Source of the DNA: Escherichia coli
Lineage (GTDB): Bacteria; Pseudomonadota; Gammaproteobacteria; Enterobacterales; Enterobacteriaceae
NCBI RefSeq assembly: GCF_003018255.1
Contig: NZ_CP027440.1
DNA length: 64,000 nt
Direction: 5' to 3' (one strand)
Of the stretch, positions 204 to 46,508 are shown piece by piece. A model generated the notes under the pieces. It was not told the DNA's origin. It searched no databases and was given only the letters and a program-made list of their open reading frames with translations. Position 1 is the first letter of the stretch. Every line of letters begins with the position of its first letter. The position numbers were made by a program, and so were the translations under genes.

Positions 204-1886
204 TTACGAAACTAACATCCCGGTAAACACATACGCCTGCAACAGCGTGATAATGCCGATAACGCTGGCAAAAATCAGACTGTGCTTCACGGTGTAGCGG
301 AACAGTTCAGATTCCCGGCCCACCATGCCCGTCGCGGCGCAGGCCACGGCGATAGATTGCGGGGAGATCATCTTGCCAGTTACGCCGCCGCTGGTATTTG
401 CTGCCACCAGCAGGGTGTCAGAGACGTTGATTTGCTGCGCCGTGGTCGATTGCAGTGAACCAAACAGGGCGTTAGAGGAGGTGTCCGAGCCGGTAAGGAA
501 TACGCCCAGCCAGCCGAGAAACGGTGAGAAAAACGGGAACATTACGCCTGTACCAGCCAGTACCAGCGCCAGCGTGGTGGACATGCCGGAATAGTTGGTC
601 ACGAAGGCAAATGCCAGCACCATGCCAATCGACAGTATCGGCCACTTCAGACTAATTAGCGTTTCGGCAAAGACACCAATACCTTTCTTGATCCCCACGC
701 CGAGGATGAAGATCGAGATAATCGCCGCAATAAAAATAGCGGTGCCACCAGCAGAGAGGGGGTCGAATTTAAACACCGCGTCCATTGGCGTCGGCTGGGC
801 GACAATGGGGGCCGCTTTCAACACTTGTTGATGCAAATGAGGGATCTGGAAATTAATCACCAGCGAATAAAACGCGCCGCCCGGAGCAAATAACGCTTTA
901 AACGGCTTCATGGTCCAGATGGTGACCAACACCGTTAAGATTAAAAACGGTGACCACGCACGAATGATTTGCCCCAGACGATATTCTGAAGGCACGGGAC
1001 CGCCAGAAGACGGTTTATTCACCACCATCGCACCTGCGGATTGTCCCATACTGATTGCCGTTTCGGTATTTTTTGGCCGCCAGACTTTAAGAAATAAAGA
1101 AAGTGAGACGATACTCACCAGCGCCGAAGTAATATCCGGCAGTTCCGGACCAATATAGTTAGAGGTAAAGAACTGAGTGACAGCGAAGCTTCCCCCTGCA
1201 ACCAGCGCCGCTGGCCACGTCTCTTTCACCCCTTTCCAGCCGTCCATCATTGCTACCAGCCAGAACGGCACAAGAACCGACAGGAACGGTAACTGACGTC
1301 CCGCCATTGCGCCAATGTCGAACGGATCGATTCCCGTTACCTGACCGGCGACCAGAATTGGCACACCCAACGCACCAAACGCCACCGGCGCAGTGTTGGC
1401 AATCAGACACAGCCCCGCCGCGTATAGCGGTTTGAAGCCCAGGCCCACCAGTAGAGCACCGGTAATCGCCACCGGTGCGCCAAAGCCAGCCGCCCCTTCC
1501 AGCAGCGCACCAAAGGAGAAACCAATCAGTAACACCTGCAAACGCTGATCGTCGGTGATGGAGATAACCGAGCTGCGGATAATATCGAACTGGCCGCTGG
1601 CAACGGTTAATTTATACAGGAATACCGCCGCGACAATAATCCACGCAATAGGCCATAAACCATAAATAAAGCCATAGCCTGCAGCAGCAAATGCCATATC
1701 AATCGGCATTTTAAAGGCGAATATCGCAATCAGAATAGATAATATAAGGGTTATTGCTCCAGCGACATGTCCTTTCAGACGTAATACCGCGAGTGCAACG
1801 AAGAAGAATATTATTGGGATCAGGGCGACCAGAGCGGATAGCCCCAGTCCTCCCATCGGCATATACATTTGGGTCCAGGTAACCAT
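204..1886 (-). CDS. glcA: Glycolate/lactate permease (LctP family), 560 aa
   Basis: Full-length ORF; protein recognised as GlcA; length matches K-12 (560 aa); position downstream of glcB. Confidence 0.93.
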
Positions 1887-2200
1887 ATTGTTCAGTCTCT
1901 TATTATCTTTATATGCTTGATATACTTAAGGTTGTAATAAGCAAAAGAGGACTGAACTGTAAAATATAGGCGTTATACTTTACAGCAACAGTACGCCGCT
2001 AACGCAATTGCTACCTCTGGCATAACAAGTATATCGGGTAAGGGTTTCTGTTCCGCACACGCAGGCGCAGAGTATCGTTAAGATGTCCATATTGTTGTTT
2101 TAATCCCGCTAGTGATGCGCTACGGGTATTTAATATTGTTAACCCCTGATAATCGCTCCGGTTATTTCCGGGATAAATGTACTACCGCAGTTACTATCAT

Positions 2201-2234
2201 AGCCCCGACAATAAATCTTGCCGGGGCTTTTTTT
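2201..2234 (+). terminator. Hairpin (gccccg...cggggc) followed by a 7-T run on the plus strand, 8 nt beyond the glcB stop
   Basis: GC stem plus T-tract read from sequence; canonical intrinsic-terminator geometry only on the plus strand. Confidence 0.4.
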
Positions 2235-2241
2235 GACGCTA

Positions 2242-4413
2242 TTAATGATTTTCTTTTTCGCGTAAACGCCATGCGTGTAATAACGGTTCGGTATAGCCGT
2301 TTGGCTGTTTCACTCCGAGGAAGATCAAATCGCAGGCAGCTTTAAAAGCACACGAGTTAGCGAAATTCTCCACCATTGGACGATAAGCCGGATCGCCAGC
2401 GTTTTGCTGATCAACCACTTTCGCCATATTCTCCAGCGACGCCTGCACCTGATCTTTGGTCAGAATACCGTGACGTAACCAGTTGGCGATATGCTGGCTG
2501 GAAATACGCAGCGTTGCGCGGTCTTCCATCAACGCCACGTTGTGAATATCCGGCACTTTTGAACAACCAATCCCCTGCTCCACCCAACGCACCACGTACC
2601 CCAGAATCCCCTGCACGTTGTTATCCAGCTCTTGTTGGATCTCTTGCGCCGACCAATTAGCGTTTTCAGCAACCGGAATAGTCAGCAGATCGTCCAGCAG
2701 CGGTTCAAATTCAGCATTGAACTCGGTCTGGGCAATGTTGGCTTGCACGCTCTGTACGTTGGTTTGGTGGTAGTGCAGCGCATGGAGCGTAGCGGCAGTT
2801 GGCGACGGAACCCAGGCCGTGTTTGCCCCGGCACGCAATTGGTCGCCCTTCTGGCTGTACATGTCTGCCATCAGGTCCGGCATTGCCCACATGCCTTTAC
2901 CGATTTGCGCTTTTCCACGTAGCCCACAGAACAGACCGGAAAGCACGTTATTACGTTCGTAGGCTTTGATCCACGGCGTCGATTTCATCTGGTTTTTACG
3001 CAGCATCGGGCCCGCTTCCATCACCGAATGCATTTCATCGCCGGTACGGTCGAGGAAACCGGTATTGATGAACGCCACGCGGTTGCGCGCCTGAGCGATA
3101 CAGCTACGCAAGTTCAGCGAGGTCCGGCGTTCTTCATCCATAATGCCCATTTTCAGGGTATTCGGTGCCATACCGAGCATTGTCTCAACGCGGGAAAACA
3201 GTTTGTTGGCGAACGCCACTTCCTGCGGACCGTGCATTTTCGGTTTCACAATATAGACGCTGCCAGTGCGCGAGTTTTTCTGCACTTTTAAATCATAGAG
3301 GGCAATCGCGCCAGTCATGACGCCATCAAGAATGCCTTCCGGGATTTCATTGCCTTCGCTGTCCCAAATCACAGGAATGGTCATCAAATGACCCACGTTG
3401 CGGATAAACAGCAACGAGCGTCCGTGCAGAGAAATTTCAGATCCATCGGCGGCAGTGTACTGACGATCGTCATTCAGTTTACGCACGATTTGCCGACCGT
3501 TCTTCTCCATTTTCTCTTGCAGAGTCCCCTGCATCAGGCCCAGCAGGTTGCGGTACAGCAGGATTTTATCTTCCGCATCAACCGCCGCAACCGAATCTTC
3601 GCAGTCGAGAATGGTACTGATGGCCGCTTCGACGATAACATCGTTGATGTGCGCCGAATCGTCTTTGCCAATCCGCCCGTTGGCATCGATTTGTAGCTCA
3701 ATATGCAGGCCGTTATTTTTCAGCAAAATGCAGGTCAGCGCAGCAGTATCGCCACGGTAACCGACAAACTGTGCTGGAGTACGTAACGTGGTTTCTTTAC
3801 CATTTTTCAACTGGATGCGTAATTGTTTATCGACCACCTTAAACGCCACCACATCCTGATAGCTGCCGTTTTCCAGCGGTAGTGATTCATCGAGGAAACG
3901 CCGAACCCAGGCGATAACCTGCTCACCACGCTGCGGATCGTAGCCGCTGACCATCGCCCCTTCCTGCGGGATGATGTCACTGCCGTATAACGCATCGTAC
4001 AGTGAGCCCCAGCGAGCGTTCGCCGCGTTCAGCGCGTAGCGGGCGTTCATCGCCGGAACCACCAGCTGTGGCCCCGCCTGACTGGTGATTTCGCTGTCGA
4101 TGCCCGTGGTTTCCACCGTAACGTGGTCAGGCTGTGGCACCAGGTAGCCCAGTTCACGCAGGAAAGATTTATAGGCCGCTTTATCTTTTACCGGCCCCGG
4201 ATTGCTGCGATGCCACTCATCAAGCGCCGCCTGAATGCGATCACGCTCTGCCAGCAACTGACGATTCTCTGGCGCCAGATCGTGAACGATCTCATCAACA
4301 TTGCGCCAGAACGCGGCAGCGTCCAGTTCCACGCCCGGCAAAACTTCTTCATCCACAAAACGTTTAAAATTGGCGTCAATGCGTAAACGGCCCTGGGTTA
4401 TGGTTTGACTCAT
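2242..4413 (-). CDS. glcB: Malate synthase G, 723 aa
   Basis: ORF length and N-terminus ([13 protein letters not shown]...) match malate synthase G. Confidence 0.95.
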
Positions 4414-4843: not shown

Positions 4844-6067
4844 TTATTCCTTTTCAAGGGCTTGTTCTACAATTTCAATCCAGTGACGCACAGAGGTACG
4901 ACCGGCGCTCGCCAGATGCGTCTGGCAACCAATGTTGGCGGTGACGATCATTTCCGGTTTGCCGCTTTCCAGCGCATTCATTTTGTTATCCCGCAGCTGG
5001 CGTGCCAGATCGGGATGCGTTAACGCATATGTTCCCGCTGAACCGCAGCACAGATGGCTGTCGGGAACGTCCGTTAAGGTAAATCCAAGACGAAATAACA
5101 CTTTTTCCACTTCGCCGTTCAGCTTTTGCGCATGTTGTAGGGTACACGGGCAGTGGAAGGCCAGTTTTTTATCGCCGCGAATTGCCAGTTTTTCCAGTGG
5201 TTCCTTGCGCAGAAGTTCGACTAAATCGACCGCCAGCTCACTGACCTGACGCGCTTTATCGGCATACAACGCATCGTTTTTCAGCATCTGCCCATACTCT
5301 TTAACGAACGCGCCGCAACCGCTGGCGGTTTGCAAAATTGCCTCGGCACCTGCTTCAATCGCGGGCCACCAGGCATCAATATTATTGCGCGCCCGCGCTA
5401 ACCCTTTCTCTTGCGCATTAAGATGATAGTCCACCGCGCCACAACAGCCTGCTTCGTTAGCTGGCATGACGCTGATCCCCAGACGATCCAGCACTCGCGC
5501 AGTTGCCGCGTTGGTGTTGGGCGAAAGCGTAGGCTGGGCGCAGCCTTCCAGCATTAAAACCCGACGCTTATGGCGCAGCGGTGGACGCGGTTTAGCTTTC
5601 ACGGTTTCAGCAGGCAGTTTTGCTCTGACCTGTTCCGGTAAAAACGGTCGCAGCACCAGCCCTACCTGCGTCAGCGCACGGAAGACCGCCGGACGCGGCA
5701 CTACCTGGCGCAATCCTTCGCGCAGCATTCGCTCCGGCAGTGGGCGTTTCACTTTCTGCTCGACAATATCACGCCCGATATCCAGCAAATTGTGATAACG
5801 CACACCAGAAGGACAGGTGGTTTCACAATTGCGGCAAGTGAGACAGCGATCGAGATGCTCCTGTGTTTTAAGCGTGACTTCGTTGCCTTCCAGTACCTGT
5901 TTAATCAGATAGATGCGCCCGCGCGGCCCGTCCAGTTCATCGCCCAGAAGCTGATAGGTTGGGCAGGTTGCGGTACAAAATCCGCAGTGAACACAGGCGC
6001 GCAGGATGCTGTCGGCTTCCAGCGCGCGCGCGTTCTGCCGCATCTCTTCTGTTAATCGGGTTTGCAT
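4844..6067 (-). CDS. glcF: Glycolate oxidase iron-sulfur subunit, 407 aa
   Basis: Track ORF has 63-codon N-terminal extension; internal start MQTRLTEEMRQNARAL gives 407 aa; CxxCxxCxxxCP ferredoxin motifs present. Confidence 0.9.
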   Translation of the reverse strand: MQTRLTEEMRQNARALEADSILRACVHCGFCTATCPTYQLLGDELDGPRGRIYLIKQVLEGNEVTLKTQEHLDRCLTCRNCETTCPSGVRYHNLLDIGRDIVEQKVKRPLPERMLREGLRQVVPRPAVFRALTQVGLVLRPFLPEQVRAKLPAETVKAKPRPPLRHKRRVLMLEGCAQPTLSPNTNAATARVLDRLGISVMPANEAGCCGAVDYHLNAQEKGLARARNNIDAWWPAIEAGAEAILQTASGCGAFVKEYGQMLKNDALYADKARQVSELAVDLVELLRKEPLEKLAIRGDKKLAFHCPCTLQHAQKLNGEVEKVLFRLGFTLTDVPDSHLCCGSAGTYALTHPDLARQLRDNKMNALESGKPEMIVTANIGCQTHLASAGRTSVRHWIEIVEQALEKE

Positions 6068-37475: not shown

Positions 37476-38360
37476 ATGTCTCATTTAAAAGACCCGACCA
37501 CGCAGTATTACACTGGTGAATATCCCAAACAGAAACAACCGACGCCAGGCATCCAGGCGAAGATGACACCGGTACCGGATTGCGGCGAGAAAACCTATGT
37601 TGGTAGCGGTTGCCTGAAAGATCGTAAAGCACTGGTGACAGGGGGCGATTCCGGAATCGGTCGCGCTGCCGCCATTGCTTACGCGCGTGAAGGGGCTGAC
37701 GTGGCGATCAGTTATCTTCCCGTGGAAGAAGAAGACGCTCAGGATGTGAAAAAGATCATTGAAGAATGCGGACGCAAAGCCGTTCTGCTGCCAGGCGATT
37801 TAAGCGATGAGAAATTCGCCCGTTCGCTGGTTCACGAAGCACACAAGGCGTTAGGCGGGCTGGATATTATGGCGCTGGTAGCCGGGAAACAGGTTGCCAT
37901 TCCTGATATTGCAGACCTCACCAGCGAACAGTTTCAAAAGACCTTTGCCATTAACGTTTTCGCGTTATTCTGGCTAACCCAGGAAGCGATCCCCCTGCTA
38001 CCGAAAGGTGCAAGTATCATCACCACTTCCTCAATCCAGGCATACCAGCCAAGCCCGCATTTACTGGACTATGCGGCTACGAAGGCGGCAATTCTGAACT
38101 ACAGCCGTAGCCTGGCAAAACAGGTCGCGGAGAAAGGTATTCGGGTGAATATTGTCGCGCCAGGCCCGATCTGGACAGCACTGCAAATTTCTGGCGGACA
38201 AACGCAGGATAAGATCCCGCAGTTTGGTCAGAAAACGCCGATGAAGCGTGCGGGGCAACCGGCGGAGCTGGCCCCTGTATATGTTTACCTGGCAAGTCAG
38301 GAGTCGAGCTACGTCACCGCAGAAGTGCACGGTGTCTGCGGCGGCGAGCATTTAGGTTAA
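37476..38360 (+). CDS. yghA: Short-chain dehydrogenase/reductase (NADP-dependent), 294 aa
   Basis: SDR glycine motif [10 protein letters not shown]; length matches. Confidence 0.92.
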
Positions 38361-38365
38361 AAAAA

Positions 38366-46469: not shown

Positions 46470-46508
46470 AAAATTCCCGGCAGCATTCTGTTACCGGGGA
46501 TATTTTTT
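46470..46508. terminator. Hairpin with T-run between yqhH and ygiQ
   Basis: Stem cccggcag...taccgggg followed by atatttttt. Confidence 0.5.

Follow-up and report, generated by a model that had tools for sequence, protein, structure and literature searches.

A single conserved stem-loop at the 3′ end of glcB is probably used on both strands: as the terminator of the antisense RNA C0719 on the plus strand, and as the hairpin at the 3′ end of the glcB mRNA on the minus (glc) strand. The stem-loop occupies positions 2201..2228 of the window (the 64,000-nucleotide stretch of Escherichia coli DNA that was analyzed), and both folding of each strand and conservation support it on both strands. Both roles are of well-known kinds, and both RNAs are already in public resources.

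The genes that flank the element were placed by open reading frame calls and by comparison with K-12. The glcA gene (204..1886, minus strand), which codes for the glycolate/lactate:H+ symporter, is the final gene of glcDEFGBA, an operon composition stated in PMC10272880. The glcB gene (2242..4413, minus strand) codes for malate synthase G. Between them lies the glcB-glcA spacer (1887..2241), which carries C0719 on the plus strand and the intercistronic or glcA-leader RNA on the minus strand; its length of 355 nt is as given in a preliminary description of this DNA. The stop codon of glcB is separated by 7 nt from the run of T residues next to the hairpin. The hairpin had been placed 8 nt beyond the stop, 8 being the coordinate difference and not the number of nucleotides between. 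Directly after the glcA stop codon, a 12-bp hairpin with a weak T tail was observed on the minus strand (166-196, AAGCCGGATGAT...ATCATCCGGCTT); it is presumably the end of the glc operon transcript.

The strain of the window is not K-12. In K-12 the spacer is 354 nt long, the T-run is one T shorter and one loop base is different; to the left of the hairpin, the window coordinate is the NC_000913.3 coordinate minus 3119393. Strain SA186 has the same spacer as the window (100% identity), and NC101 too has an identical hairpin region. Among 5426 complete E. coli genomes, the hairpin region is single-copy in 4540, and the spacer/hairpin region was found at a median of 1 and a maximum of 2 places per genome. 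No match to this region was obtained in 884 of the 5426 genomes, which is consistent with the loss of C0719 in some lineages reported in PMC3318445. Truncated matches were observed in a few genomes, e.g., JCL301 and MB53.

The preliminary description had noticed a G+C-rich hairpin followed by seven T residues at 2201-2234 (AGCCCCGACAATAAATCTTGCCGGGGCTTTTTTT), and this is what the sequence and the folding of both strands reveal. The lower stem consists of 7 bp and is G+C-rich (AGCCCCG/CGGGGCT). Above it, as read on the plus strand, follow a 1×1 A/C mismatch and then an upper stem of 3 bp (CAA/TTG), capped by a loop of 6 nt. The seven T residues (2228..2234, plus strand), the first of which (2228) pairs with A2201, would form the U-tract of a plus-strand terminator, and on the glc strand they are an A-run upstream of the hairpin. 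The energy calculation on both strands that had been proposed as a check gave −14.7 kcal/mol for the plus-strand RNA (z = −4.25, with 0 of 200 shuffles as good) and −20.1 kcal/mol for the minus-strand RNA (z = −6.0, with no dinucleotide shuffle as good). The minus-strand fold is the stronger one because the A/C mismatch becomes a G·U pair there. The sequence that follows the stem on the minus strand (AUGAUAGUAAC) has 3 U in its first 10 nt. Since this tail is not U-rich, the canonical terminator orientation is that of the plus strand, opposite to the glc operon, in agreement with the preliminary description.

On the plus strand the element has a stem of at least 5 bp, a short loop, a folding energy in keeping with a Rho-independent terminator, and a U-tract of at least 5 residues directly 3′ of the stem. 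Stem and loop of this kind are present likewise in K-12, E. albertii, Raoultella and two other enterobacterial contigs, L128 and L131. It thus resembles the Rho-independent terminators of E. coli in its G+C-rich stem, its short loop, its run of 5-7 U and its energy of −14.7 kcal/mol, but differs from them in the internal A/C mismatch, found in most E. coli, and in that no in vivo end is given for it in the Term-seq table discussed below. When both strands of the 64 kb were searched for T-runs of 6 or more next to a hairpin of −10 kcal/mol or lower, 5 sites were obtained from 87 T-runs, and the site at 2201-2234 ranked second strongest. Two other strong hairpins followed by T-runs were seen at ∼38337-38365 on the minus strand (T7, with the T-run starting at 38365; −18.7 kcal/mol) and at ∼46475-46503 on the plus strand (T6, with the T-run starting at 46503; −13.8 kcal/mol). 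An automated terminator scan of the window did not report 2201-2234; our guess is that, with the mismatch unread, the loop counts as 14 nt, against the 8-nt limit of the scan.

A palindrome in an intergenic region could in principle be nothing more than a chance inverted repeat, or the remnant of a REP-type or mobile repeat. We give this explanation almost no credence. The z-scores lie between −4 and −6 with no shuffle as good, the 28-mer of the stem-loop occurs once in the 64-kb window, and the places per E. coli genome (median 1, maximum 2) are not those of a repeat. Furthermore, the hairpin is conserved across genera with compensated changes in the stem. A REP or other repeat element is refuted by the single copy, the folding z-scores and the cross-genus conservation.

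Conservation of the hairpin, which had also been proposed as a check, was analyzed in the spacers of 46 metagenome contigs, of E. albertii (L002; a close relative among the contig matches listed), of L128 and L131, and of Raoultella planticola (L129 and L130); L128, L131 and the Raoultella contigs were found through a search for GlcB homologues. Contigs L084, L090, L096, L102 and L106 were excluded, being of low quality and with large apparent differences in the flanking genes; for the same reason, an A/C stem variant of L096 was not trusted. The GlcB identity is 88-89% for L128/L131 and 79-80% for Raoultella planticola. The order glcDEFG-glcB-spacer-glcA was observed in all relatives compared, and the hairpin is conserved in E. 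coli, E. albertii, L128/L131 and Raoultella alike. In 6 of 6 lineages the glcB stop codon is followed by an A-run of 5-7 nt and then by a G+C-rich hairpin, whose tail is not rich in U. The corresponding T-run of the plus strand is 7 nt long in the window, L128 and L131, 6 nt in K-12 and most E. coli, and 5 nt in E. albertii and Raoultella. Across the lineages the energy of the hairpin ranges from −14.4 to −29.7 kcal/mol on the glc strand and from −12.7 to −28.8 kcal/mol on the opposite strand.

The Raoultella spacer is 52% identical to that of the window, compared with 49-51% for third codon positions, and the hairpin and the A-run are still present in it. The retention of the A-run in so diverged a spacer suggests that the U-tract itself is selected, which is sensible only for a plus-strand RNA. 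In Raoultella planticola L129, a 94-aa gene was called opposite glcB (5618-5902, minus strand); it spans the hairpin, overlaps the end of glcB and has no Pfam match, and is probably a spurious call.

The preliminary description had raised the possibility that an unannotated plus-strand small RNA ends at the hairpin. The data fit such an RNA, but it is already catalogued, as C0719 (Rfam RF00117, G0-8912). The RF00117 model matched positions 1965..2186 of the plus strand over model positions 1-222 of 222, with 294.3 bits (E = 2.8e-78), well above the gathering threshold of 50 bits. Locus and strand are those of C0719 and the match is full-length, but it ends 15 nt before the hairpin: the Rfam model stops short of 2201-2234, so that the family definition does not include the terminator. 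The model also matched E. albertii with 273 bits, L131 with 114 bits and L128 with 103 bits; all three matches lie 12-15 nt upstream of the hairpin and U-run, on the strand of the U-run. The RF00117 search gave no match in the Raoultella spacer. With the C0719 match just upstream, the hairpin and U-tract are its obvious terminator. From the arrangement of the sequence, they most likely constitute the terminator and the true 3′ end of C0719, and the Rfam and EcoCyc coordinates of this RNA probably end 40-50 nt short of its real 3′ end. On the plus strand, the hairpin and U-tract would then end C0719, and would stop transcription that is born in the spacer and runs antisense into glcB.

The standing of C0719 as an RNA is weak. 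It reportedly stems from the array study of Tjaden and co-workers of 2002. C0719 is listed in sRNA surveys and screens, and the RefSeq annotation of K-12 has nothing in the glcB-glcA spacer, C0719 included. RNA-seq counts assigned to C0719 (plus strand) were very low and rose in transition and stationary phase (PMC4676190). Overexpression of C0719 gave no biofilm or motility phenotype (PMC4606813), and a transposon insertion at the C0719 site lowered group II intron retrohoming (PMC3636086). The C0719 core had no excess folding energy on either strand (z = +0.85). An automated scan of the spacer found no promoter for C0719, and a looser scan of the spacer yielded no convincing sigma-70 promoter, but only the weak candidates TGaTATACT (1918-1926) and TAAAAT (1960-1965). 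Altogether, no function, promoter or mapped 3′ end was found for C0719. A relationship with Spot 42 (RF00021) was rejected: the match at 2125-2235 (plus strand) scored 21.5 bits against a threshold of 80 bits (E = 0.13), and the resemblance is mainly to the terminator. An ORF of 77 aa (2112..2345, plus strand) crosses the terminator into glcB, to which it is antisense.

Mapping of 3′ ends, the remaining check that had been proposed, could be evaluated with the published K-12 Term-seq data of Adams et al. 2021 (PMC7815308, supplementary file 1). In that table, glcB has a 3′ end at NC_000913.3 position 3121590 on the minus strand, with an average read count of 47630, present only in LB at OD 2.0, and classed as 'primary' for glcB and as 'antisense' to C0719, which the table names by its EcoCyc identifier, G0-8912 (PMC7815308). 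Each entry of the table gives 50 nt upstream of the end, the end nucleotide and 10 nt downstream; the 3121590 entry was assigned to LB OD 2.0 by its position between the sheet headers 'LB 2.0' and 'M63 0.4'. It is the only entry at the locus over the three growth conditions (PMC7815308). The check was therefore positive for the minus strand and gave no plus-strand end: none is listed at K-12 312162x in LB OD 0.4, LB OD 2.0 or M63 (PMC7815308), and this is an absence from the available lists, not a proof of absence. In addition, the coordinates and gene names of the locus had no match in the TERMITe and SMRT-Cappable-seq supplements, which may not list E. coli ends. No entry for glcB was found in the other supplementary files of Adams et al. 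2021 that were examined, the Rho-region table included.

The homologue of the 3121590 end in the window is position 2197 (minus strand), so that the 3′-terminal sequence of the glcB message is ...GGGGCUAUGA, with the last nucleotide 4 nt past the stem; the end was measured in K-12, whose hairpin differs from that of the window by one loop base and by one A/T in the run. The glcB mRNA of K-12 thus ends at the stem-loop in vivo (PMC7815308). Dar and Sorek 2018 (PMC6061677) described, in E. coli, stable stem-loops without a U tail just upstream of steady-state 3′ ends, and these stem-loops protect 3′ ends that have been trimmed back by PNPase and RNase II. The glc-strand hairpin is like them: it is a stable stem-loop without a U-rich tail, and a precise steady-state end lies immediately downstream. 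It is unlike them in two respects. It lies within the operon, between glcB and glcA, and not at its end; and the spacer has no marked C-rich, G-poor rut-like stretch, as no convincing stretch of this type was found downstream of the hairpin on the glc strand. By analogy with the cases of Dar and Sorek, the minus-strand hairpin would block 3′-to-5′ exonucleases after a break or a stop further downstream in the spacer, and some direct termination at the hairpin may take place too. Such a hairpin would protect the glcDEFGB mRNA, uncouple its level from that of glcA, and help to set the glcB:glcA ratio.

The mapped end also bears on the bidirectional action, through an upstream A-tract, that had been suggested for the hairpin. 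An RNA end on the operon strand does exist, at 3121590, but it does not arise by the suggested mechanism, there being no U-tract on that strand. The plus-strand sequence upstream of the hairpin is ACTATCAT, and the minus-strand tail is thus AUGAUAGU; no A-tract precedes the hairpin on the plus strand, either in the window or in any of the lineages compared, and this part of the description does not hold. Bidirectional terminators, with overlapping convergent transcripts, have reportedly been described by Ju and co-workers in 2019. The present site shares with these one hairpin with RNA ends or end signals on both strands, but lacks a U-tract on the second strand, and its flanking genes are co-directional, not convergent. 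It is very improbable that the hairpin is a true bidirectional intrinsic terminator that ends glcB transcription canonically. The RNA ends or end-like features on both strands are what such a terminator would leave; but the minus-strand tail has the 3 U in 10 nt already described, the plus strand has no upstream A-tract, the mapped end lies 4 nt past the stem and not 7-9 nt into a U-run, and glcA, downstream in the same operon, requires read-through.

If the element served the plus strand only, it would be the terminator of C0719 or of antisense transcription, and the minus-strand end would be a passive stall of exonucleases on the glcBA mRNA. We regard this as doubtful. Canonical terminator anatomy is confined to the plus strand, the U-tract is conserved, and C0719 family matches adjoin the hairpin in four lineages, all of which this explanation would account for. 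Yet the Term-seq table holds no plus-strand end, and the glc-strand hairpin is as strong or stronger across the Escherichia variants (−19 to −22 kcal/mol, versus −14.8 to −21.7 kcal/mol on the plus strand). Moreover, even a 'passive' protection would still serve the stability of the glcB mRNA, and this explanation differs from use on both strands mainly in emphasis.

The stem was then compared position by position on the two strands. Paired stem cells across the lineages amount to 90.9% for the glc strand and 87.3% for the plus strand. At the internal pair, the glc strand has G·U in most E. coli, A-U in a minority E. coli haplotype, G-C in the E. albertii type and in Raoultella, and U·G in L128 and L131; in 4 of the 6 aligned lineages this position is mismatched (A/C or C/A) on the plus strand. 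One E. albertii sequence has an additional U·G pair on the glc strand. The apical pair has the opposite pattern: in 4 of the 6 lineages it is G·U when read on the plus strand, but A/C on the glc strand, which speaks against a one-sided strand assignment of the stem from wobble pairs. The comparison suggests that the stem is maintained on both strands, the glc strand being favoured slightly at most. RNAalifold of the whole spacer gave −47.96 kcal/mol on the glc strand (covariation term −1.46, 14 compensated pairs) and −34.54 kcal/mol on the plus strand (covariation term +1.65, 7 compensated pairs). This consensus folding favours the glc strand, and with six sequences it is suggestive only.

These data could also be read as a function of the operon strand alone, in which the hairpin is a stabilizer or partial stop at the 3′ end of glcB, the T-run is fortuitous, and C0719, rather than a discrete functional RNA, reflects array noise or pervasive antisense transcription. 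We consider this a possible but unlikely account. The sole mapped end is on the minus strand; the internal position is a G·U, U·G, A-U or G-C pair on the glc strand and a plus-strand A/C mismatch in 4 of 6 lineages; the whole-spacer consensus fold is better on the glc strand (−47.96 versus −34.54 kcal/mol); and C0719 is poorly supported, being unannotated in RefSeq, with low counts and no excess folding. However, an A-run of 5-7 nt abuts the stem in every lineage, even in Raoultella, where the flanks cannot be aligned, and we are aware of no purpose that an upstream A-run would serve in a 3′-end-protecting hairpin. In addition, the apical pair favours the plus strand in 4 of 6 lineages (G·U there, A/C on the glc strand), so that the asymmetry is not one-sided. 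Use of the stem-loop on both strands remains the explanation that we prefer.

The constraint is not limited to the hairpin. Between the window and E. albertii, the spacer is 95.2% identical and the third codon positions of glcB and glcA 72-77%; between the window and L131/L128, the values are 72-73% and 52-59%, respectively. Within E. coli, π is 0.0087 in the spacer and 0.038-0.047 at third codon positions of glcB and glcA, with 16 segregating sites out of 340 in the spacer and 80 out of 400 at third codon positions. The spacer value equals that of the first and second codon positions of glcB, and the most variable stretch of the spacer is the hairpin end. Judged by these comparisons, the entire 355-nt spacer is under strong purifying selection, about like non-synonymous sites. 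C0719, a structured glcA leader or DNA sites are candidate causes.

A small protein was considered and rejected. An ORF of 36 codons (2090..1980, minus strand; MDILTILCACVCGTETL...) is open in every E. coli haplotype, both of its E. albertii substitutions are synonymous, and its start (ATGGAC..TTAA) is conserved out to Raoultella. However, 8 of its 9 E. coli polymorphisms are non-synonymous and 1 is synonymous, the frame is lost in L128/L131, and it is reduced to 12 codons in Raoultella. Polymorphism and frame loss thus argue against a conserved coding gene, and the region is probably a conserved nucleotide block, not a gene.

Two further structures were observed within the spacer. At ∼1957-1985, a 12-bp A+U-rich inverted repeat with a 5-nt loop (CTGTAAAATATA ggcgt TATACTTTACAG) is kept in E. 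albertii, L131 and L128, and overlaps with C0719 at the 5′ end annotated for that RNA. Wherever its arms differ, the glc strand has a G·U or U·G pair and the plus strand an A/C mismatch; the repeat may form a hairpin in the glc-strand RNA or serve as a protein-binding palindrome. In the most conserved block of the spacer, at ∼2033-2052, the glc strand can form a small hairpin (UCUGCGC cugcgu GUGCGGA). This hairpin contains U·G and G·U pairs, and in L128/L131 one of them is replaced by A-U; its plus-strand counterpart would have two mismatches.

The constraint on the spacer, together with a reverse-oriented terminator kept from Escherichia to Raoultella, is compatible with a wider proposal, in which the spacer is a conserved sense/antisense module made of a structured glc-strand leader, a hairpin that stabilizes glcDEFGB, and C0719 as a modulator of processing. 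In such a module the intercistronic leader would set how much transcription or translation reaches glcA, e.g., by conditional processing or Rho termination, and the cis-antisense C0719, ending at the same hairpin, would modulate the processing. We put this forward as a speculative proposal, and think it improbable.

The locus provides another case in which a single stem-loop bears a terminator signal for one strand and coincides with a mapped RNA 3′ end of the opposite strand. A glcB message with a defined 3′ end inside glcDEFGBA helps to explain a possible unequal expression of the enzyme genes and the permease gene. The strong constraint across the whole spacer is the lead most worth following from this locus.
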